From a virus, in UHGV virus genome UHGV-0235457: 38,103 nucleotides of DNA. One strand, written 5' to 3'. Within the stretch, counting starts at the first letter, position 1; every line of letters begins with the position of its first letter. The position numbers were made by a program, and so were the translations under genes. Shown here piece by piece: positions 11,267 to 38,083 of this stretch. The notes below the pieces were generated by a model that ran no database searches, had not been told where the DNA came from, and saw nothing but the letters and a program-made list of their open reading frames with translations.

Positions 11267-13564
11267 TTAAACGCTCGCTACATTATACCAGGTGCCATTT
11301 ATATACTTTTGAACGGGTCTGTAATAAACGCCCGCTATATTATCGGCAGAGTTGGCCCCTGTATCCTGAACATTAATACCAGACAATACATGACCTGACG
11401 GGCACTGGAAATTCCATGTTTGCCAGTTGTTCACTCCATAATATTGCTGTGAACCAAGTCGAACATCTTTCACATATCTGGAATCAAAATTGCCATAGTT
11501 GCCGGGAATAACTTGCGAGCCGCAAAGCCAGTTCCCGTTATTATCCATGTACGCCTGACCATCGGTACCATTGGCTGTCCTTGAGTTATTAATCATGTAG
11601 ATGCCAAATTGCTTATTCCCCAGTCCACCAATCATAAATTTGCGATCAGCGTGGTCCTGACGAAGTAATGCCTGCGCACCATCGGTGGATACCGCATTGC
11701 GTCCCAAAATAACATTCTGGTCACGCATATGAATCCACATGCCGGTACTACTGTTAATTGCAAAACGGTTTGCAAATATATCCCCTGTAACATCAAGACC
11801 ATGCCCCATGCTTATCCGACCAGTTCTAAGGTTAATCGTAAAGGGGCGTAATGGCCCTATATCACCATTTTCTCCCTCATTCTCTCGTGTAGGGATGATA
11901 TGCAGGCATTCTTCAGAACGGCGAAAAATGGCACCAAAAGATGAATTAAATATCCTCAGTGCATTGACTGTCGATATTTTTACTTCACTGCTGAAAAGGG
12001 CTTTAACAAGAACAGACAAAGCATCCCATTTAAGATTCATCAGGTCTTTTGTTGTGGTGCTTTGTTTGCTTCTCCATTTGAAATATTCATTGCCGTTGTC
12101 GCCTGTTTCAAACCACATGTATGAATCAGTGTCACCATCGGCATCATTTTTAAATCCAATCTTCGCCCAGTCAGTATTTCGAATCCAGGCAAGGATTGAG
12201 TCATTTTCAAAAGTAAGCCCACCGGACAAGGTATCGCCATTTTTTTGCACGGCGTTACCAGCCCTGTTTACCGTTTCCTGTAAACCGAGGTATTCGATAA
12301 CGGCAGCAACGGTCGATTTCGCAAGAATATCCCGCCCGACTTTTGTCAGGGTTGCCAGGCTGGCGACATCATTCCCCGTAAAATACGGAAACTTGTCTGC
12401 AGCAGTAGCAAGCCCGGCCAGCGCCGTCAGGGTGGCATCTTTCGGTTGCTTACCCGCAAGCGCGTTAGTCATGGTGGTCGCAAAATTCGGGTCGTTTCCC
12501 AGCGCCGCCGCTAACTCGTTCAGCGTATTCAGTGCGTCAGGTGACGAATCTACAAGGGCGGCAATCGCAGCCATAACGAAAGCCGTGCTTGCGATTTGGG
12601 TATTATTCGTTCCCTGTCGCGCAGTTGGCGTTGTTGGCGTTCCGGTCAACGCAGGACTGTTTAAGGGCGCTTTCTTGTTCGTTTCATCCATTACCGCCTT
12701 GACCGCTTTCGATGTCGCGGCCAGTGTTTCAGACGTGCTGTTGGTGGCACTACTGAGCTGGACTATCCCTTTTTGTGCCGTCGTGGCGTCCTGAGCGGTA
12801 TATTTTGCGTTAGCAAGGTCATACGCGGCCTTTACTGCTTTCGGCGTTGCAGCCTGCGTTTCAGACGTGCTGTTGGTTGCACTGCTGAGCTGGACTATCC
12901 CTTTTCGTGCCGTCGTGGCGTCCTGAGCGGTATATTTTCCGTTAGCCAGGTCATACGCGGCCTTAACCGCTTTCGGCGTTGCAGCCTGCGTTTCAGACAC
13001 GCTGTTAGTGGCGCTACTGAGTTGAACAAAGCCTTTTGCGTTCAGCGAGGCGTCCGGGTGACGTCGTGACTGTTCATGCTCTTTCAGTTTGTCATCCACG
13101 TAATCCACTGTGGCCATCACCATGGTGTTATCCACGGTAAGTGCCACGGTGGCAGTGCTGGATACGGTCAGAATGGTGCGAAATGTTTGTGCACGACCGG
13201 ACCCTTCGGCAACGGCTGGCTTGTAACTTTCGGCAGTATTGCCCACCGCGATTAAATCGCCGTGCTCATCAAATACACCAATTTCCCGGATCCAGAATCC
13301 GCCCGTTTCTGGAGGAATAACCAGCTCTGCAATAATGCGGTTCTGATGTGTTGCGTCCAGGATGACGCGATTAACAGTATGTCGCCACACCTCATGCACC
13401 AGACGGGTCTGCTTACTGTCTGGCGTGGGCAATGTACCGCCACCGTCGCCCACGGCCATATGAGTCAGGCGGACAGGCTTACCATCTGGCGCGGCTGCCT
13501 GAGCTAATTTTTTGGCACCCGTATCGGTGATAACGGTTTTAAATTTACGTGTTGTGGTACTCAT
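11267..13564 (-). CDS. Tail fibre protein (P2 gpH-like); constant N-terminal ~426 codons, variable C-terminus inside the invertible segment
   Basis: 765 aa; internal fibre repeats; crossover site at codons encoding [10 protein letters not shown]. Confidence 0.9.
12275..12300. other. Invertase crossover site (gix/hix-like) inside the fibre gene
   Basis: TTCCTGTAAACCGAGGTATTCGATAA, inverted relative to 9211-9236. Confidence 0.8.
12680..13030. repeat. Three tandem ~129-bp coding repeats in the fibre shaft (phage tail fibre repeat)
   Basis: Units encode [41 protein letters not shown]; near-identical DNA copies visible. Confidence 0.8.
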
Positions 13565-24985: not shown

Positions 24986-25476
24986 CGCGCTTCGCTTGTC
25001 TGCTGCTTCGCCGGGGCATAAAAAATTTATGCCCCGACTCTCCAGCTCCTGTATCAGTCAGATAATTTCACGACGCCTTCCGGTTTATCGCCACCATCGA
25101 CGGTCAGACTCTTACGCAATCCCACCGCGTTGACTGCATGTTCTCGCCGCCTCAGTGCGATTTTGACGGCCTTACCTTTCACCCCATCAAATCAGAATCC
25201 CTCACGTCTTTTTCACGCTCAGCGTGAGAAATACGGCCATTCTGTCGTGTCGCTGCGACATCGTTAAGGGAACGCTATTTACCCCCTGAAACGCGGGCTG
25301 TTCCCCCGTCACCTGCGCGCAGAAAAAACGCGTTTTTTTGTGCACGCACGGATCCTTGACGGATCCAGCCGCCACGCGGGCTGGAAGGGTAAAAAGTCGT
25401 TCAAAAAAATTGTGCAAATTTGTGCACTATTGTGCATTGAAATAAACGCCCTGGAAGAGGGCGTTTTGGCTCATTT
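24986..25476. other. Non-coding region expected to contain cos, between portal gene and end of the early/accessory operon
   Basis: Position equivalent to cos in the P2 prophage map; palindromes present (GGGGCATAAA-N3-TTTATGCCCC at 25017-25039); exact cos ends not identified. Confidence 0.3.
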
Positions 25477-25818
25477 CTATAGCTTTGATGCAGGCTGGGC
25501 TAGATGTAAGGGTTGGACATACCAGCCTTTTGATAACCAACTCTCTGCAACATCTTTACTCCTTGTTATTGCTGGTATTCCGATGCCGTTATTTACATGC
25601 ATCCATGCTACTGGCTCTGCTTCCAGCGATGCCAGCACAATTCGTGCCAGCTCACGCACTACTTCCGGGGGCGCGTAACGGTCATTCAGGTCATCCCACA
25701 GGCGTAGCATGTTATCGCTACCAGGGTGAACATCCTCGTTAGTTCCGGCAAGCGCACTAATAACCTCATCGGCTGCCTCAATAATTTTCAGAGCTTGTTC
25801 TCTGGTAATAGTGGTCAT
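25477..25818 (-). CDS. Hypothetical protein, last gene of accessory operon
   Basis: 113 aa; 4-bp overlap with upstream gene. Confidence 0.55.
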   Translation of the reverse strand: MTTITREQALKIIEAADEVISALAGTNEDVHPGSDNMLRLWDDLNDRYAPPEVVRELARIVLASLEAEPVAWMHVNNGIGIPAITRSKDVAESWLSKGWYVQPLHLAQPASKL

Positions 25819-26025: not shown

Positions 26026-26340
26026 TCAGTCTCCTTTGATGCCAGTGTTTACAACCTGACAAGCCTCTTTGAGCACCCAGTCAACAGCGTCTTTCCATGC
26101 TCCGGTTTCGGCTGGCGGATTCTCACGCTTTACCAGTTCATAGAAATGTACTGCTCTAACCAGTCCATCTGACGGTTTTGCCTGTAGTGCAGCCTGAGCT
26201 ATGCGGTATGCCTGGAGCATACGGGCGTCGTTGATATCCATTCCGAACGGAATTTCTGATGATTGTGACTCTGCATCTTCAAGCCTGGCAATTTCTTTAC
26301 GTAAGAAGTATTTCAACTCTTGTTTCTGTTTTCTGTTCAT
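26026..26340 (-). CDS. Hypothetical protein
   Basis: 104 aa; overlaps upstream gene stop. Confidence 0.5.
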
Positions 26341-26669
26341 GCGTTTTTTTCCTTTTTGTCTGTCACTTCTTTCCTGATAATTTCATTGCACAAATCCACG
26401 CACTCATTGCAGATGTAAACAGACGGTCCGGCAATCACCTTTGTGACTTCGTACTGGGATTTATTGCAGAAACTGCAATAAACCGTCTTCTCGCCTGAAG
26501 TCCATGTTTTGCTGGTTTCGCCAGACATCAGTTGTTTGAGGTCTTTTTCACGACGAAGAACTATCTGGCCACATTCAGCTATTTTTTGGATGTTGACATT
26601 TTCTTCTTTCGCCAGCGCTTCCATCCGCTCAATCAGTCGCTGCGCTTTTTCTCTGTCAATGTGTTGCAT
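26337..26669 (-). CDS. Protein with C-terminal ClpX-type zinc-binding domain
   Basis: [38 protein letters not shown] closely parallels the ClpX N-domain C4 motif as recalled; AAGGGGGA RBS. Confidence 0.75.
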
Positions 26670-26732
26670 TGTGTCCCCCTTGTTTATGCTCCCGGGTTAA
26701 AGTCATCAGGGCGGATGCGCCCTGATGTTGTG

Positions 26733-27044
26733 TTATTCGGGAAATAACGCCCGGATATTTCCGGCCATCTGACTGGTTATCTGTGCGGCTGATACTGGCT
26801 GTGACGCGGGGCGTTCTGTCCTGGTTTGTGTCATTGATAACGCCTCATCATCAGCCCATGCAGCCAGTCGGTAAGCCTCTGCCGGATTCATTTTCAGTAG
26901 TGCCAGCCCGGCCAGAAAAGCCACGCGTTGACCACTTTTGCGGGCTTCTGGTGTAAGGCTGTCCAGCCAGGCGCATGCTTCGCCTTCGTTCTTGACGGCG
27001 GCGGGCTTCAGATAGAAACTTATCCGTCTGGTTGGTGTCGTCAT
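26733..27044 (-). CDS. ParR-like centromere-binding adaptor
   Basis: Internal ATG 27044 with AAGGAG; RRISFYLKP, LDSLTPEARK, FLAGLAL and C-terminal IRALFPE parallel plasmid R1 ParR as recalled. Confidence 0.6.
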   Translation of the reverse strand: MTTPTRRISFYLKPAAVKNEGEACAWLDSLTPEARKSGQRVAFLAGLALLKMNPAEAYRLAAWADDEALSMTQTRTERPASQPVSAAQITSQMAGNIRALFPE

Positions 27045-27048
27045 TGGT

Positions 27049-28008
27049 TTACTCCTTGTCCATTGCGTACAGCCCATTAACCAGAGCAAACTGTGGCACC
27101 CCGTCCGCGATGAAAGTCGCATTAACTCCGCAGGCTTCGCGGATAGCGGGTGCCACAATCTCTGCCCCGCCACCGACAACCATCACCCGCCCGTAACCCG
27201 AAAAACCCGCCAGCGCGCGGATCACGCGTTGTTTCAGTGTTTCTTCCTTTTCACGAATAACCGCCATCAGGCTGGCGTAATGCGCGTCATTGTGGATGTG
27301 CTGGCGCAGCCAGGCTTCATCATGGCGATGTTCGATAATGGTATTGGCGATGTGGTGACTGGTACGCATACCGTTAGTGGCCATCACCGACAGTACGGCA
27401 TCGGCCATCAGGGAAACGCCTACGTGTGGATCGCAAAACACCTGGCTGATACCTGCCAGTTGTCCCTGAACCTTTGCCACATCCAGCGTGGTTCCGCCTA
27501 AATCCACAATCAGCAGGGATTCAAACGGACTCATGTCAGCCAGTGCTTTAAAACCAGCCGGTATGGATTCAGGCATAACCCGTACGTTACGGATAGTGAA
27601 TGCTTTTCCGTTCTGGTACGCCACCGGGCGCATGACGTTTGCTTTTTTGCGGTTGATGTTGGCTATGTCCGGCTGTGCGTTTGTGTCGAAATACTCGCTC
27701 AGTGGCAGGGTGACAACCACATCCACCTCCTGTGGCGTGATGCCTGATTTGACCAGCGCGTGATGAATGGCAATGACATTCACATCGCTGTACTGGTATT
27801 GCGTATCGGTCGTCTGGACAAAGCGATCGCTGACCGGATCAAAACCATAGCGCACGCCATCAAGCATGTAGTTCGCGGGCTGCGTGCCACCGAACGGCGC
27901 AGACCATTCCGACTTGAAGCTGTTCGGGCTGATGGCGTTGCGGCGTTCGCCGTTCTCAGTCCATGCCAGCTTGATGTTGGTGGAGCCGTCGTCGATACAA
28001 ATTTTCAT
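27049..28008 (-). CDS. ParM/StbA-like actin-family ATPase
   Basis: IDDGSTNIKL (phosphate 1), DLGGTTLD (phosphate 2), VVGGGA (adenosine) motifs; 319 aa; N-terminus parallels R1 ParM as recalled. Confidence 0.75.
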   Translation of the reverse strand: MKICIDDGSTNIKLAWTENGERRNAISPNSFKSEWSAPFGGTQPANYMLDGVRYGFDPVSDRFVQTTDTQYQYSDVNVIAIHHALVKSGITPQEVDVVVTLPLSEYFDTNAQPDIANINRKKANVMRPVAYQNGKAFTIRNVRVMPESIPAGFKALADMSPFESLLIVDLGGTTLDVAKVQGQLAGISQVFCDPHVGVSLMADAVLSVMATNGMRTSHHIANTIIEHRHDEAWLRQHIHNDAHYASLMAVIREKEETLKQRVIRALAGFSGYGRVMVVGGGAEIVAPAIREACGVNATFIADGVPQFALVNGLYAMDKE

Positions 28009-28032
28009 GTCGCTTTTCCTTATGTTGAATAA

Positions 28033-30924
28033 TTAATCGGTTACAGGATTTTTAAATCCCGCTTTTGCCTGTTTTGTGCGCGCTTCATATATCGCGGCAC
28101 GTTTTTGCTCATTTACGGGATTTGTGAGTCCCGTTTCTGTCTGTTTTTTGTTTCCACTGGTCAGGCTACCCCGCAGCAGGTCTGCTTTGCGGCGGGCGCG
28201 TTCAGTGGTTTCACTGATTCTCTGTGCGTGCTCTGCGTCACGGATGGCGCGCAGCATGTCAGAAAGCATGGTAACGGGGGTTTTCATGGTGTTCTGGCCC
28301 TGCTGAAGTGTGGATGCCAGGCGTGCGGTGGCTTCGGGGTCTGATGCCCCCAGCTGTTCCAGATAGCTGGCGACCGGGTTATGGCGGATCTCCGTGCTGC
28401 TTACGCCGTGGTTACGGCTCAGACGCTGCCAGAGCTGCGTGATCCGGCTGTCCGGTCGGGTATCCGGTTTGCGTACAATTTCAAATCCCTGAGGTGCAAT
28501 GATGCTGCCGTCAACGTACAGACTGCCGCCCCGTAACAGGTGCTGCATCTGCTGTTCACCGATATGCAGGCCGAGAGATTCAGCAGACTCCCGCCATTCT
28601 TTAGCGAGTAATTCGTGGTTATCAGGCAAAGGCCGCTGCTGTTTGCGGCTCTGTGTCCAGCTCTGCATTTCATCACTGCTGTTTTTTGCCTGTTTGTCAC
28701 GAAGCGAACGCATCAGCGCCCGGCGTTCGTGCCGTTTCAGTGAGCGCATCCATTCGTTCACTTCAACGCCGTCAAGGAGCTGCGGCCATGGTGCTGGCCG
28801 TTCTTCCGGCTGTTCTGTCCCGTTGTTGTCCGTTTCCTGTACACGGGGACAGTTATTGCCACGAGTCCAAGGGGCGGCAGGGCCGCCCTGAAGGTCAAAA
28901 CCATTTTCGCGGGCACTGTCTTCCGCTTCCGGTTTGCGTCTTACCAGCTTCCAGTTATCCGGATGCGTGCACACACGGGAGGATTCCCCGATGAGTGGTG
29001 ACCAGATCCCGTAAATCTGTACGCTCTGTTCGCCGTAATCGTTTAGCTCATCGGCGAGGTCGTAGGCGGTGCGAATCAGGTAGTCTTTGCGTGGAACAAG
29101 TACGCCGCCCTGTTTCTCTATGTAGGTGGCAAAACATCCGGCATCAGCGGCGGCAAGAACCGCATCCATTGCGTCATCCTTTAGCCGTTGCGGGCCTTCC
29201 GGGTTGCGTGCCATCTGGCTGGCAAGGCGGCGCAGTTCACGCCATACCTGGCGGGAGGGGATGCCAAAGAACTGGAACTGGCGGACCCGGTGAAGGCGCG
29301 CCCAGCCGATGGCGCGTTCCACGCTCTCGGCCATTGATTTTCCGGTTTCGTGGTCAACGCGTGGCTTGCCCGTTTTCGGGTCGATGCCATCCACGGCACG
29401 GCTGTCCAGGTTTTTCCCGATGTAGGTGGCGATGTAGCTGGTCGGTGTGCCTTTTGAGCCGTCGACGTACTCCGCCTTAAAGCGTGGGGTAATATCATCA
29501 CCCAGCTCGTGACGATCTTCCTGAATGGCAATATCGCGGGTGTGGGACACAATAGTGTCGATTTCTTCCGGATGAGCAAAGACCATCATATGCCAGTGCA
29601 CGGTGCCGTCATGGTGAGGCTCCACCGTGCGGATGCCATACCAGCGCAGGCCGTCGCGGTTCAGTTTCTTGCGGACCGCCGCAAAAAACGTGTTAACCAG
29701 GTAATCGCTGGAGTCGCGCATGGTGGCCCCGTTCCATTTGGGATTCGGATGACCGTTCTCTGTTGTGGCGTGGTATTTTGACGGGCAGGTGACAGTCAGA
29801 AACACCGCTTTGTCGCCACGGGCTTCGGCCAGAAGTTCCAGCCCCTTCATGGTGGCCATCATTTCTGCCTTACGGTGAACCGGGTTACTTACTCCCGCGT
29901 AATACACTGTCTCGAGATCAATCGTGAACCCATCTTCGTTTTCCAGCATGAAACTTTTCAGGAAATCGCGTGTTTTCTCGCGCTGTGCGCGAAACTCGCT
30001 TAATGCGTCCTGGCTCAGATAGGGCGATGTTTTTCTGGAAACCAGACAGGCGGCGCGGAGTTGTTCTTCTCTCCACTCGCAACGTAACAGCCACAGTTTG
30101 CGTTTCCACCATTCCGCACAGGTCAGGCGAAGGATTGCGCCCGGCAGCAGCTCCGTGTCCGGTCCGTTCCTCCGGTCTTTATCTGTTGTCAGTGCGTCAT
30201 AATGTGGAGGCATGATGTGCAGGTGTAACGCCATGCGGGCCAGCATCTGATACGCCTTCAGCGTTACATCCATGGTCAGTTCGCCATCGGTCGCGCCAAA
30301 GCCATCGCAGAGTTTTTCGAAGGTGCTGCTGAACATCGCCGCCGTCATGGTGGCCAGCGTCTGTATCTGGTGTTTGTTGAGCTGCGGCAGGTAAAGCAAA
30401 TCGTCCAGGCGTTCGCGTCCGGCAAGGGAGCGATAACCCGGTGTCAGCCAGCGCCCGTCAGTGCGATCCAGACGTTCGAATATTTTGCGCAGGGTTCCGC
30501 GTGTATAGCGTTCCGCCTGCCAGCTCTTTTTGCCTTTCTGACGATCGGCTTCCTGCTTCTTGCGCAGGAAAGAGAGGTGGCGGCTCAGAGGTTCTCGCAG
30601 ATAAACGGGAAGCACCTTCAGTGTGGCAAAGGCACGGGCTACCGGGTCTTGTTCTGTTGCCCGGCGCTTACTGATGATGCTCTGTGCCAGCTTTTCACGC
30701 TGTCCGGCTTCCTCAAGGGATGCCATGAGTTTTTTACCCATGGCGGATTGTGCGAAAAAGGCTTCTTCCTTCGCTTCCTGTTCTTCCTGTGCCCTTTTGT
30801 CCGCCTCAAGGTAGTAACGGATGGCGCGTTGCAGGTCGGTTTCAGTTTCCTGCCTGCGCTCCGTAAATCTGGCCGGATCAATAGCTGGTCGTGGTTCATT
30901 CCAGCTCCATGCAAACGCACTCAT
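28033..30924 (-). CDS. Rolling-circle replication initiator (P2 gpA-like); alternative GTG start at 30951
   Basis: HWHMMVF (HUH-like) and YIATYIGK motifs; ATG 30924 overlaps upstream stop (ATGA). Confidence 0.85.
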   Translation of the reverse strand: MSAFAWSWNEPRPAIDPARFTERRQETETDLQRAIRYYLEADKRAQEEQEAKEEAFFAQSAMGKKLMASLEEAGQREKLAQSIISKRRATEQDPVARAFATLKVLPVYLREPLSRHLSFLRKKQEADRQKGKKSWQAERYTRGTLRKIFERLDRTDGRWLTPGYRSLAGRERLDDLLYLPQLNKHQIQTLATMTAAMFSSTFEKLCDGFGATDGELTMDVTLKAYQMLARMALHLHIMPPHYDALTTDKDRRNGPDTELLPGAILRLTCAEWWKRKLWLLRCEWREEQLRAACLVSRKTSPYLSQDALSEFRAQREKTRDFLKSFMLENEDGFTIDLETVYYAGVSNPVHRKAEMMATMKGLELLAEARGDKAVFLTVTCPSKYHATTENGHPNPKWNGATMRDSSDYLVNTFFAAVRKKLNRDGLRWYGIRTVEPHHDGTVHWHMMVFAHPEEIDTIVSHTRDIAIQEDRHELGDDITPRFKAEYVDGSKGTPTSYIATYIGKNLDSRAVDGIDPKTGKPRVDHETGKSMAESVERAIGWARLHRVRQFQFFGIPSRQVWRELRRLASQMARNPEGPQRLKDDAMDAVLAAADAGCFATYIEKQGGVLVPRKDYLIRTAYDLADELNDYGEQSVQIYGIWSPLIGESSRVCTHPDNWKLVRRKPEAEDSARENGFDLQGGPAAPWTRGNNCPRVQETDNNGTEQPEERPAPWPQLLDGVEVNEWMRSLKRHERRALMRSLRDKQAKNSSDEMQSWTQSRKQQRPLPDNHELLAKEWRESAESLGLHIGEQQMQHLLRGGSLYVDGSIIAPQGFEIVRKPDTRPDSRITQLWQRLSRNHGVSSTEIRHNPVASYLEQLGASDPEATARLASTLQQGQNTMKTPVTMLSDMLRAIRDAEHAQRISETTERARRKADLLRGSLTSGNKKQTETGLTNPVNEQKRAAIYEARTKQAKAGFKNPVTD
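28041..28138. repeat. Two imperfect ~38-bp direct repeats, each with an internal near-palindrome, in the 3' end of the replication gene just upstream of the ParM-like gene
   Basis: TTACAGGATTTTTAAATCCCGCTTTTGCCTGTTTTGTG vs TTACGGGATTTGTGAGTCCCGTTTCTGTCTGTTTTTTG. Confidence 0.45.
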
Positions 30925-31310
30925 GGCTGGTATCCCGTCACGCGCTGCCACTCCTGCGAGAAGAGGGCGGAAAGGCGGTTAAATTCAGCGGTGTATTCAC
31001 TCAGCGAGGCACACCCGCCAGCAGTGCGATGCGCCAGCATTGCTGCAAATACGGAGGCCGGGGAGTCGTAATACGCCAGCAGTGATTCGCCGTGCGGTGT
31101 CAGGCAGTGCAACGCCAGTCCGTGTGGTGTGAAATCCACGCGGTAGCAGTCGTCTACTGTGAAATAAAGGGTGTCTGCATTCTCCGGTTTTGTGGTGCGT
31201 GCTCTGTTGTCACGACCACGGATGTAGAGATCAAATAACCCCTGAAGAACGGGAGCCAGACGGGTGTCCTGTGTGCGCACCCATCTTGTGAAGTCATGAG
31301 CGTCAATCAT
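30921..31310 (-). CDS. Hypothetical early protein
   Basis: 129 aa; translationally coupled to the replication gene. Confidence 0.55.
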   Translation of the reverse strand: MIDAHDFTRWVRTQDTRLAPVLQGLFDLYIRGRDNRARTTKPENADTLYFTVDDCYRVDFTPHGLALHCLTPHGESLLAYYDSPASVFAAMLAHRTAGGCASLSEYTAEFNRLSALFSQEWQRVTGYQP

Positions 31311-31382
31311 GCTGCAATTCTCTTTACTACAGATGTGCGAAGGCCTCCCGCCGCAAGGTGCAGGAAAGGCCCGGAACAGGAA

Positions 31383-31613
31383 TTAATGGAGTTTGTTTTG
31401 CTGCTGGATGAGCTGTTGAAGCTCGTGCAGATCATCCGCCAGATAGCTGAAAACAGAGGCGGAATAAATGTTTGATAGTGCGTGGCTGCGCTCATGCAGC
31501 ATATTGATGTGCATGATTTGCGCGACGCGTGATGCGCGGGAAAGTCTGCGGTTGATTTCAGTCTGGATGTGACGACGCTCCGCGATAGCGCGGTGCTGTT
31601 TGCGGTCTGCCAT
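31383..31613 (-). CDS. Hypothetical small early protein
   Basis: 76 aa. Confidence 0.5.
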   Translation of the reverse strand: MADRKQHRAIAERRHIQTEINRRLSRASRVAQIMHINMLHERSHALSNIYSASVFSYLADDLHELQQLIQQQNKLH

Positions 31614-31790
31614 GGTGTGGCCTCTTTGCTCGGTGATAGAAATAACTCACCATCCAGAGTTGAGAATCTCGGGGTGGCGAGACGTACAGGGTTCTCAACA
31701 CCGGAGAGCAAAGAATCCGGCCCGACCGAAGTCGGCCCCGTACGCCCCGCCATAATTCTGACGCGAAAAAGACGTGGCAATACAGTACGC

Positions 31791-31816
31791 ACAAAAAAAC
31801 CGCTTGCGCGGTTATG
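31791..31816 (-). terminator. Rho-independent terminator-like hairpin within the early-region non-coding stretch
   Basis: AACCGCGCAAGCGGTT stem followed by T7 on the minus strand. Confidence 0.5.
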
Positions 31817-31935
31817 CGCTTTGCTCTGTATCGGGTTGAGAATCCCGGCACCCGTTTTATGAGGTGCAGCGGAAATGTAACCTGACCGATTGAGGCATGG
31901 CAAGCGGTTTTTTTGTGTGTGCATGTTCTGGTTTC

Positions 31936-35743: not shown

Positions 35744-36745
35744 ATGTCGGTTCGTAAGATTCCATCAGGTAAATGGCTTTGCGAATGTTATCCCTACGGG
35801 GCATCGGGAAAACGCATTCGTAAACAGTTTGCGACAAAAAGTGAGGCGCTCTCTTATGAGCGCCGTTTAATGAATAGTAGAGTTGGAGACGAGTTTCAAG
35901 ATGGTTCTGGTCCTCGTCTTTCTGAGTTGATTGCTCGTTGGTTTGAGATGTACGGTAAAACCTTGTCCTCTGGTGCAGAGCGCAAAGTCAAACTTGAGGC
36001 GATTTGTTCCAGGCTGGGAGATCCATTTGCTTCTCAGTTTGACAAAAATATGTTTGCCACTTATCGGGAAAGAAGGCTATCAGGAGAATGGAATCCCAAG
36101 GGGAAGAAAAAACTTAGTGAAGCAACCGTTAATCGCGAGCAGTCATATCTACATGCTGTTTTTGCCGAACTGAAGCGCCTTGGGGAGTGGTCTGGTGAAA
36201 ACCCCCTGACTGGTATTCGCAAGTTTCGTGAGGAAGAAAAGGAACTGGCGTTTCTGTATGTAGATGAGATTGAACGCCTTCTGATTGCGTGTGATGAGTC
36301 ACGGAATAAAGATTTGGGGGTTGTTGTCCGTATTGGGCTTGCGACTGGTGCTCGGTGGAGTGAAGCAGAAGGATTAAAGCAATCTCAAGTACTGCCCGGT
36401 CGAATCACATTTGTTAAAACTAAAGGAAAGAAGAACCGCACTGTACCGATTTCACCTCAATTGCAGGCTATGCTTCCCAAAAAACGAGGAGCGCTATTTT
36501 CACCATGTTATGAGGCTTTTGACGCTGCAATTAAGAGAGCGAAGATCGAGCTTCCTGATGGGCAATTAACTCATGTGCTACGTCACACGTTTGCCAGTCA
36601 TTTTATGATGCGGGGCGGAAATATTCTTGTGTTGCAAAAAATACTGGGGCATAGCGATATAAAAATGACTATGCGTTATGCGCATTTTGCTCCAGGTCAT
36701 TTAGAGGCTGCTGTTGAATTGAACCCTTTTGACAATAGAGGGTAA
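35744..36745 (+). CDS. int: Tyrosine recombinase integrase, P2-like
   Basis: 333 aa; GKRIRKQF...SEA N-terminus, HVLRHTFASHF and MRYAHF motifs; adjacent to right att repeat. Confidence 0.9.
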   Translation: MSVRKIPSGKWLCECYPYGASGKRIRKQFATKSEALSYERRLMNSRVGDEFQDGSGPRLSELIARWFEMYGKTLSSGAERKVKLEAICSRLGDPFASQFDKNMFATYRERRLSGEWNPKGKKKLSEATVNREQSYLHAVFAELKRLGEWSGENPLTGIRKFREEEKELAFLYVDEIERLLIACDESRNKDLGVVVRIGLATGARWSEAEGLKQSQVLPGRITFVKTKGKKNRTVPISPQLQAMLPKKRGALFSPCYEAFDAAIKRAKIELPDGQLTHVLRHTFASHFMMRGGNILVLQKILGHSDIKMTMRYAHFAPGHLEAAVELNPFDNRG

Positions 36746-37036: not shown

Positions 37037-38083
37037 TCATTTTCTCTGGCCACCAACTACGGGCACTACTTTAACTTTTCGGTCATAGGCAGCTGTCTGT
37101 CGTGGGTTCTTATGCCCGGAAATTGCTTGCTTCTCTTCCAGGCTGCCTTCCAGATCAGAGATACCTTTTGCTTTCAGATCATGAAATGTGAAGTCTATTT
37201 GCAGATGAGGATATTTTTCCTGTGCTGCCGCTTTGACATCACGCCAACGAGAGTTAAAACCATCACGGGTATACTTGCCACCGGTAGTTTGATGAATCAC
37301 AAACAGGCTACTGATTCCCGTTTTTAATGGCAGAGAACGAGCCAGAGCTATCGCTTTCTGCAGACGAGGCGACCAGGCTTTGATTTGCTTAACGCCGGTT
37401 TTTCCCTGACGAATGTAGATCCCGGAATCGAACAGCTGGTCTTTCTGCAATGAAAGTACATCACTCTGTCTGGCCACGCATAAGTAGGCAATCTCCATTG
37501 CTACGCGAACAACATCAGGAGACACTTCATAAACGGCCTGATATTCTTCATCCGTAATATAGCGTTCGCGAGCTTTCTCTTTAAACTGTTTAACTCCCTG
37601 ACAAGGATTCCTCTGAACATAACCTCGTTCATAACCCCAACGGAATACCCGGGACATAAAGCTTTTTTCCCTGTTTGCCTGAGTTCGGCTTGATAAACCG
37701 CGTTGATCCATATAGCGCCGAATATGTTCAGGTTTGATTTTATCCGGGTCGATCTTCCCGAAGACAGGTAGAACTTTTCCGGAATATTTTGTGTAGTCTT
37801 TCCTGGTTTCGACTGCCAAATCCATAAAATCAGGGGAGGTCATGAATTGTTCCGTGAGCGCCTGAAAAGTATTTCTTTCTTTTTCGTCACCGACCGCTTT
37901 TTCATATGCCAGCCATACGGCTGATCGTGGCGCATCCAATGCGCACAGGCGTATCGCTTTGTTATCTTTATTCCTGAATTCGTAGGCCGCTTTGCCCTGG
38001 TAAACACGAGGCGGCATCCAGTTATCTGCTGGGTTCTTTCTCTTTCCGGCCATTAAATATTGCTCCAAAATCAGGTTCATCAT
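37037..38083 (-). CDS. Tyrosine recombinase integrase of a second integrative element
   Basis: 348 aa; HDLKAKG and AAYDR catalytic-region motifs; lies outside the right att repeat, 3' end facing the tRNA fragment. Confidence 0.8.
   Translation of the reverse strand: MMNLILEQYLMAGKRKNPADNWMPPRVYQGKAAYEFRNKDNKAIRLCALDAPRSAVWLAYEKAVGDEKERNTFQALTEQFMTSPDFMDLAVETRKDYTKYSGKVLPVFGKIDPDKIKPEHIRRYMDQRGLSSRTQANREKSFMSRVFRWGYERGYVQRNPCQGVKQFKEKARERYITDEEYQAVYEVSPDVVRVAMEIAYLCVARQSDVLSLQKDQLFDSGIYIRQGKTGVKQIKAWSPRLQKAIALARSLPLKTGISSLFVIHQTTGGKYTRDGFNSRWRDVKAAAQEKYPHLQIDFTFHDLKAKGISDLEGSLEEKQAISGHKNPRQTAAYDRKVKVVPVVGGQRK

Follow-up and report, generated by a model that had tools for sequence, protein, structure and literature searches.

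The subject of this analysis is a parM–parR gene pair in the UHGV virus genome UHGV-0235457, an integrated P88-like (genus Xuanwuvirus, Peduoviridae) P2-type prophage of E. coli; the whole stretch of 38,103 nucleotides is referred to as the window. The same cassette is present in P88 and other Xuanwuvirus phages, in which ParM is 98–99% and ParR ~95% identical to the proteins of the window. Nothing material distinguishes these copies from ours, apart from a 1-nt deletion in the window with a lengthened gene for the replication initiator gpA and a gap of 24 bp between gpA and parM. The two genes are named 'plasmid segregation protein ParM' and 'partition protein' in GenBank and RefSeq, PHROGs lists both as partition proteins, and the record of the plasmid prophage D6 notes a similarity to P88 StbA. 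P88 has earlier been flagged as possibly having episomal and integrative states (Pfeifer 2021), a putative partition system has been reported in about one quarter of the E. coli P2-like phages (Rousset 2022), and the paper on phage PhiSM lists the gene as a fitness factor. Because the genes carry these names in GenBank and RefSeq and the partition idea has been raised in Pfeifer 2021 and Rousset 2022, the presence of a parMR pair in the prophage is real and already known, and the plasmid-like idea is a published hypothesis. New in our analysis are the conservation of the cassette across genera, the correspondence of the ParR tail to that of a plasmid system, a centromere candidate made of two dyads, a neighbouring origin of replication and a count that speaks against a stable plasmid state. 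On balance, it is probable that the pair is a genuine type II (ParMRC-type) partition cassette, which moves or segregates transient circular phage DNA and does not maintain a permanent plasmid prophage. It also appears to be a conserved part of the replication module in one P2-like lineage, comprising the P88-like Xuanwuvirus phages and prophages of Hafnia, Plesiomonas, Serratia and Enterobacter.

Among plasmid systems, the phage pair is comparable to the ParMRC (StbA/StbB) cassette of R1 and R100. Both have parM followed by parR with tight coupling of the two genes, the window ParM is 47% identical over its full length to R1/R100 ParM and has all the nucleotide-binding motifs, and the candidate binding sites are located directly upstream of parM. 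The N-terminal domain of ParR is homologous (34% identity; 97.5% probability in hhalign for an alignment of 17 phage ParR homologues against R100 ParR) and its C-terminal motif aligns with the R1 tail. This R1 tail reportedly binds ParM (Gayathri et al. 2012, PDB 4A62). In contrast to R1/R100, the phage cassette resides in an integrating P2-type phage, after and apparently co-transcribed with a rolling-circle initiator, and it has two 16-bp dyads 72 bp apart instead of ten 11-bp direct iterons and a recognisable promoter of its own. The window ParR is also shorter than those of R1, pB171 and other prophages and lacks their central helix segment.

Phage D6, which is P1-like, carries StbA/StbB with a ParM 48% identical to ours, a ParR-like partner and repeated TTCTCAAAT motifs upstream. 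However, D6 is a non-integrating 91-kb plasmid prophage with an obvious need for partition, and in our tree its ParM does not group with those of the P2-like prophages. The srpMRC system has been reported to stabilise the excised, relaxase-replicated form of the SXT/R391 integrative and conjugative elements (ICEs) via four 13-bp repeats (PMC4489591). It resembles the phage cassette as a type II-like partition system in a normally integrated element, with a transient circle, a rolling-circle-type enzyme and a small centromere, in which the repeats precede the ATPase gene and are direct or inverted. However, SrpM and SrpR are no more than remote relatives of ParM and ParR, to which the phage proteins are closely related. 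The host element is an ICE and not a phage, and srpMRC has experimental support, whereas the phage cassette is known from sequence alone. The Corynebacterium prophage CGP3 has a further system, AlpAC/alpS, and requires AlpAC for its DNA to replicate efficiently (PMC4446434). This system likewise combines a prophage actin-like filament with a DNA-binding adaptor, which has its sites in front of the operon; induction is early, and the target is circular phage DNA. In contrast to ParM, AlpC belongs to a distant actin-like family, the gene order is alpA, alpC, the host is Gram-positive, and the role shown for AlpAC is efficient replication and not segregation.

ParM and ParR proteins

ParM of the window is recognised by both Pfam families that define the family here (PF06406 and PF21523, with curated thresholds). 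StbA_N matches over its full length at residues 1–157 (1.4e-81, 272.6 bits, cut-off 24.6) and the C-terminal domain, also over its full length, at residues 159–316 (1.2e-68, 230.6 bits, cut-off 27.4). The structure of R1 ParM (PDB 1mwk) matches residues 2–316 with an E-value of 1.6e-92, and PHROG 691 ('partition protein') is a further match; a search of NCBIfam gave sub-threshold matches only. The actin-fold motifs pointed out in a preliminary description of this DNA are present as DDGST (residues 6–10), DLGGTT (169–174) and GGGA (279–282), and they are kept as the phosphate-1, phosphate-2 and adenosine motifs in alignments with R100/R1 ParM and 1mwk. The resemblance of the N-terminus to R1 ParM, which that description also pointed out, holds as well, as MKICIDDGSTNIKLAW aligns to MLVFIDDGSTNIKLQW of R100/R1.

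The parR open reading frame (ORF) is nested within a longer ORF of 148 aa starting with TTG. The ATG of parR follows the stop codon of parM by 4 nt, and an AAGGAG Shine-Dalgarno sequence overlaps the end of parM. Pfam PF10784 (Plasmid_stab_B) matches residues 6–76 of ParR with 2.5e-24 and 85.4 bits against a cut-off of 25. A phmmer search of the PDB with the single ParR sequence gave no match; the ParR profile with R100 ParR included matches pB171 ParR (2JD3) at 3.7e-13. Profile searches therefore place the 319-aa protein in the ParM family and the 103-aa protein in the ParR family, as had been proposed, and clearly not in a non-segregation actin-like family with a small protein unrelated to ParR.

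The phage ParRs consist of a conserved N-terminal domain (residues 1–65), a hypervariable linker (66–92) and a conserved C-terminal motif NI(R/Q)xLFPE. Such a layout is what might be expected for a type II adaptor with a DNA-binding domain, a flexible linker and a filament-binding tail. Despite the hypervariable linker, N96, I97, F101 and P102 are invariant across the 17 phage ParRs, and N96 and L100 are common to the C-termini of the window ParR and R100 ParR. The preliminary description had drawn parallels between ParR and the plasmid protein in three blocks. The homology itself stands (PF10784, hhalign), but the C-terminal block has to be paired differently, with IRALFPE facing the extreme C-terminus of R1 ParR (KKNAMKLIN) and not the internal ILRSLFPKE. 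The motif is a predicted ParM-binding tail. The linker region (26733–26900) is hypervariable among the loci compared, with at least two allelic C-terminal halves of ParR at ~53% overall identity (loci L003 and L011). These alleles accompany ParMs that are 98–99% identical, and the first 48 and last 8 residues of ParR are conserved among them.

Both genes are under purifying selection. The dN/dS of parM is 0.04–0.15 against seven close prophage copies and that of parR is 0.18–0.42 against six close copies, and both genes are intact in all copies sampled.

Candidate centromere upstream of parM

Dyads of 16 bp with the form GGGAY-N6-AWCCY occur exactly twice in the window, 72 bp apart and 37–124 bp upstream of parM. 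The pattern GGGAYNNNNNNAWCCY has only two matches in the 38-kb window against 0.30 expected by chance; since the pattern was defined after inspecting the sequences, these statistics are indicative only. Every P88-like locus has this dyad pair immediately in front of parM, with a spacing of 72–73 bp, and so do the prophages of Hafnia and Plesiomonas, where the surrounding DNA has diverged and the dyads remain as conserved islands. The proximal dyad of the relatives lies inside the 76-bp intergenic region between gpA and parM. A scan of IMG/VR for the double dyad returned 120 loci, 101 with ParM and 19 without a ParM match, and 99 of the 101 have a distance of exactly 36 bp between the end of the motif and parM downstream of it. 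As these are mostly near-identical P88-like contigs, the scan adds positional consistency and no new lineages.

The N-terminal ParR segment RRISFYL, expected to form the strand of a ribbon-helix-helix (RHH) fold, is conserved among the dyad-bearing lineages apart from one conservative I/V substitution; the ParRs of Serratia and Enterobacter have NRKISFYL at this segment. It is tempting to regard the two dyads as a candidate parC to which ParR may bind. An R1-like iteron array was not found in the window by a k-mer search, of which the control recovered the 11-bp iterons of R100. Further degenerate dyads are not enriched in the phage either (11 found with one mismatch, 11 expected).

Other interpretations of the dyads, and other sites, were considered and set aside. 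The dyads do not coincide with a replication origin, as the P2-type nick region maps 0.75 kb away, at 28842–28884. They are unlikely to act as RNA hairpins, because those of Hafnia and Plesiomonas would pair through GGG/CCC only. The hairpin at 26704–26727 is a single, unrepeated stem-loop with a variable loop at the 3′ boundary of the module and was rejected as a centromere. Three TGCACAA motifs with 10-bp phasing are present at 25406–25436, between the last ORF of the early operon (25477–25818) and the cos/portal region; as a parC they are unsupported, being found in close relatives only and 1.3 kb beyond parR. In a Serratia prophage (locus L009, 9370–9440), four copies of TGACTTCA form inverted pairs and a strong hairpin between parR and hicAB, and these repeats are probably the operator of the hicAB toxin-antitoxin genes.

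gpA, the origin and expression of parMR

The spacing of 24 bp between the gpA stop codon and the parM ATG, as given in the preliminary description, is correct for the gpA ORF (28033–30951), but it is particular to the window copy. The run at 28102–28106 consists of five A residues in the window and of six in all seven relatives compared. With one A missing, the last codons of gpA are read in another frame, gpA is lengthened and the gap is reduced to 24 bp, in contrast to 76 bp in relatives. Either a real mutation or a sequencing error in the homopolymer may account for the shorter run.

Within gpA, the stretch at 28842–28884 corresponds to the ori nick region of P2, with the nick annotated at 29892 of NC_001895, and encodes AAPWTRGNNC. 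It is the probable origin of this phage, as judged by its similarity to P2, and is situated ~0.75 kb upstream of the dyads. By this placement the replication gene, the origin, the candidate parC and parMR form one block of 4.3 kb.

No terminator-like site was seen on the coding strand of the gpA–parM interval, and a crude consensus scan upstream of parM in the window and in P88 found no consensus sigma-70 promoter. Since parMR follows gpA by 24–76 bp with neither a terminator nor a recognisable promoter between them, the pair is most likely expressed with the early replication operon. Co-transcription with gpA, as assumed earlier, is therefore plausible. The features described above and below are collected in Table 1.

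Table 1. Coordinates of the partition cassette and associated features in the window
Feature	Position	Strand	Remarks
Hairpin, perfect 10-bp stem and 4-nt loop	26704–26727		5 nt past the parR stop; 3′ boundary of the parMR module
parR, putative centromere-binding adaptor, 103 aa	26733–27044	-	PF10784; ATG at 27044
parM, actin-like segregation ATPase of type II partition systems, 319 aa	27049–28008	-	Pfam, PDB and PHROG matches
gpA, P2-type rolling-circle replication initiator	28033–30951	-	Pfam Phage_GPA, 438 bits, residues 194–518
Proximal dyad GGGATTTAAAAATCCT, candidate ParR-binding site	28045–28060	-	Ends 36 bp before the parM ATG
Distal dyad GGGACTCACAAATCCC, candidate ParR-binding site (parC-like)	28117–28132	-	Within the 3′ end of gpA
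Putative ori nick region within gpA	28842–28884	-	28/43 nt identical to the P2 ori nick region
Phage integrase	35744–36745

Distribution of the cassette

RefSeq names parM together with parR in 1307 of 5426 complete E. coli genomes (~1 in 4). Outside E. coli, the order gpA–parM–parR is kept in P2-like prophages of Hafnia, Plesiomonas, Serratia and Enterobacter (ParM 62–63%, 58% and 54% identical). In these genera parM comes after gpA, in some cases separated from it by one or two small genes, and is followed by a PF10784 gene with the portal gene downstream. A neighbour-joining tree places the P2-like prophage ParMs in one clade, separate from the plasmid and ICE ParMs; ParMs of ~50% identity outside this clade are present in an ICE, an integrated plasmid and a plasmid-like contig. 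Of 50,697 phage records, 382 have a GpA-type initiator and 14 have this ParM. All 14 match the P88-type replication region, with gpA 73–99% identical where listed, and the only further ParM match among the phage records is that of D6. The synteny across genera, the single clade and the constant association with the P88-type replication region suggest that parMR belongs to the core of a single gpA lineage, to which it is specific, and is not shuffled cargo. A search of genome contigs for related loci returned three near-identical loci only, one of them labelled Vagococcus.

In P2-like phages, a hotspot for defence systems has been documented between gpA and gpQ (PMC9122126), and variable genes do come after the parR hairpin. 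The pair might therefore be accessory cargo of the gpA–portal hotspot, serving in defence against phages or plasmids, causing incompatibility with R1-type plasmids, or persisting as a decaying remnant of a captured plasmid. We consider this very improbable. Neither ParM nor ParR has a match in PADLOC-DB at E ≤ 0.1, and a defence role of parMR is unsupported. The strong purifying selection and the intact ORFs contradict decay, and, unlike shuffled cargo, the genes keep their synteny with gpA across genera at 54–63% ParM identity. Interference with R1 plasmids is not expected, because the DNA-binding domain of ParR is only 34% identical to that of R100 and the upstream repeats are unlike the R100 parC.

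A different explanation, raised explicitly by Pfeifer 2021 and Rousset 2022, is that P88-like phages are stable phage-plasmids, which alternate between the integrated state and a long-term, low-copy plasmid prophage maintained by gpA replication and ParMR. The replication gene, origin, candidate parC and parMR do form a compact plasmid-like block, the true plasmid prophage D6 uses a related ParM, and one circular 'plasmid' of 34,461 bp in PLSDB (NZ_CP148288.1) is a whole P88-like phage. However, this lone circular record might just as well represent an induced prophage in its replicative form. Those of the other plasmid-record matches that were examined comprise a degraded linear fragment and a 129-kb plasmid with the prophage integrated in it, and 1453 of the 1455 places of the cassette in the 5426 complete E. 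coli genomes are chromosomal. The element also retains its integrase and the Cox/C switch. Moreover, rolling-circle replication by gpA is not known to be copy-number controlled. The genome and plasmid records do not establish the element as a separate replicon in lysogens, which is how a phage-plasmid is understood in Pfeifer et al. 2021. The chromosomal count and the plasmid records argue against a habitual plasmid prophage state, which seems quite improbable, and fit a role on transient circular DNA.

Proposed role of the cassette

Rolling-circle replication by gpA of P2 yields monomeric circles, and P2-type phages package monomeric circles. According to the reading that we favour, a partition cassette for transient circular phage DNA, parMR would be expressed with the early replication operon, at times when the phage genome exists as a circle outside the chromosome. 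The DNA acted upon would be either the circular genome that follows infection or excision, or the monomeric circles that arise from gpA replication. Dimers of ParR would bind the two GGGAY-N6-AWCCY dyads upstream of parM, and the C-terminal helix of ParR would capture the ends of ATP-bound ParM filaments. Insertional polymerisation of ParM between two ParR-bound circles would then push the copies apart, as established for R1. The cassette would in this way position or segregate transient circles without upkeep of a permanent plasmid prophage. In that case, it might be considered a phage counterpart of the ICE srpMRC system, and it would have implications for how a temperate phage escapes being lost in the interval from infection or excision to integration. 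The occurrence of the cassette in about one quarter of the complete E. coli genomes and in several enterobacterial genera, under purifying selection, adds to its interest.

The same filaments might act during the lytic cycle only, where ParM would position replicating DNA, for example towards the poles or off the nucleoid, and raise the efficiency of replication or packaging in the manner of AlpAC in CGP3, with no role in inheritance. The location of the genes in the early operon next to gpA and the lack of a recognisable promoter for them agree with such an organiser, and the separation of circles could help their packaging as monomers. However, by close relationship the cassette belongs with a push-apart segregation system and not with AlpC, and it is missing from ~96% of the phage records that have gpA (14 of 382 carry ParM). 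An exclusively lytic role therefore appears unlikely, although it overlaps with the favoured role in segregation of transient circles, and inheritance of a transient episome and organisation of lytic replication cannot be separated by the sequence alone.

Several observations weigh against a partition cassette for transient circles. Lytic replication of the P2 type yields numerous copies, and a need for active partition of these is not obvious; our literature search found no functional study or experiment on this cassette. Only two dyads (four half-sites) are present as compared with ten 11-bp iterons in R1, and the dyad motif was chosen after the sequences had been seen, so that it can serve as an indication only. 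The dyads are absent in the Serratia/Enterobacter subclade, which has other inverted repeats in their place, with 19-bp arms starting GGGAAC. As the absence of a promoter rests on a crude consensus scan, parM may have a weak or ParR-regulated promoter. The AlphaFold2 model of the ParR monomer is of low confidence (pLDDT 57.6) and was for this reason used for predicted helices only, which are placed at residues 20–29, 32–52 and 54–61 (spanning 20–61) and, at the C-terminus, at 86–100. The N-terminal strand is unformed in this weak model, as expected for the monomer of an intertwined dimer.

A more far-reaching idea can be put forward tentatively. The gpA gene with its internal origin, the two-dyad centromere and parMR could make up a self-contained unit of a rolling-circle replicon with actin-type partition, giving an integrating lineage a segregating episomal phase. 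Such a phase could be delayed integration, a carrier state or an ordered distribution of replicating circles. It is possible, if less probable than the role on transient circles itself, that the module works in this manner. If so, the line between integrative prophages and phage-plasmids would blur, and a working type II centromere could be as small as two dyads.

Hairpin and neighbouring genes

The early operon on the minus strand runs from gpA through parM, parR, the hairpin and four small genes to the cos-proximal region and the portal gene. The hairpin noted earlier after parR was found as described, with a perfect stem. As RNA it has a free energy of -20.5 kcal/mol (z = -5.3) and is far more stable than shuffled controls. 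On the strand of parR it is followed by ACUUUAA and not by a U-tract, which agrees with the preliminary description; on the opposite strand it is followed by TTGTGTTATT and is terminator-like for the plus strand. In the loci L004 and L005, where the downstream gene differs, the stem is kept and the loop is different, and variable genes start past this hairpin. The first of these in the window (26337–26669, minus strand) encodes a 110-aa protein with a match to zf-C4_ClpX at residues 64–99 (6.8e-18). This ClpX-type C4 zinc finger (N-terminus of TIGR00382) is its sole recognisable part, with no AAA+ domain, and the protein could be a decoy or modulator of the host ClpX. The gene is variable cargo, as a different gene is present at that spot in other relatives.

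The region 26300–31000 has 96–98% identity with phages PhiR44_2, P88 and Chuche and with Citrobacter phage PhiSM, and the gene order of the window agrees with the P88 record. Genes for tail, head, terminase, portal, the Cox/C switch and integrase were found. A second tyrosine integrase gene is located at 37037–38083 on the minus strand, ~300 bp past the phage integrase, which suggests that two mobile elements share one attachment site in tandem.

In the early region upstream of gpA, Rfam identifies a C4 antisense RNA (31670–31757, minus strand, 78.5 bits) and an IsrK Hfq-binding small RNA (31793–31867, minus strand, 63.1 bits). The two RNAs adjoin a 76-aa ORF (31383–31613, minus strand), which by position corresponds to the 'derepression protein' gene of P88. 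A 205-aa ORF (31307–31924) that overlaps both RNAs is probably spurious. The large ORF at 11267–13564 on the minus strand is probably a tail-fibre gene and contains a 132-bp tandem repeat (12696–13021) of 2.5 copies with 89% matches. Finally, the locus L004 (NZ_JBQPOM010000071.1), labelled as Vagococcus sp. WN89Y, is a 226-kb contig with a P88-like prophage region and a ParM 97% identical to that of the window; its presence in an assembly of this Gram-positive genus is most likely due to enterobacterial contamination.

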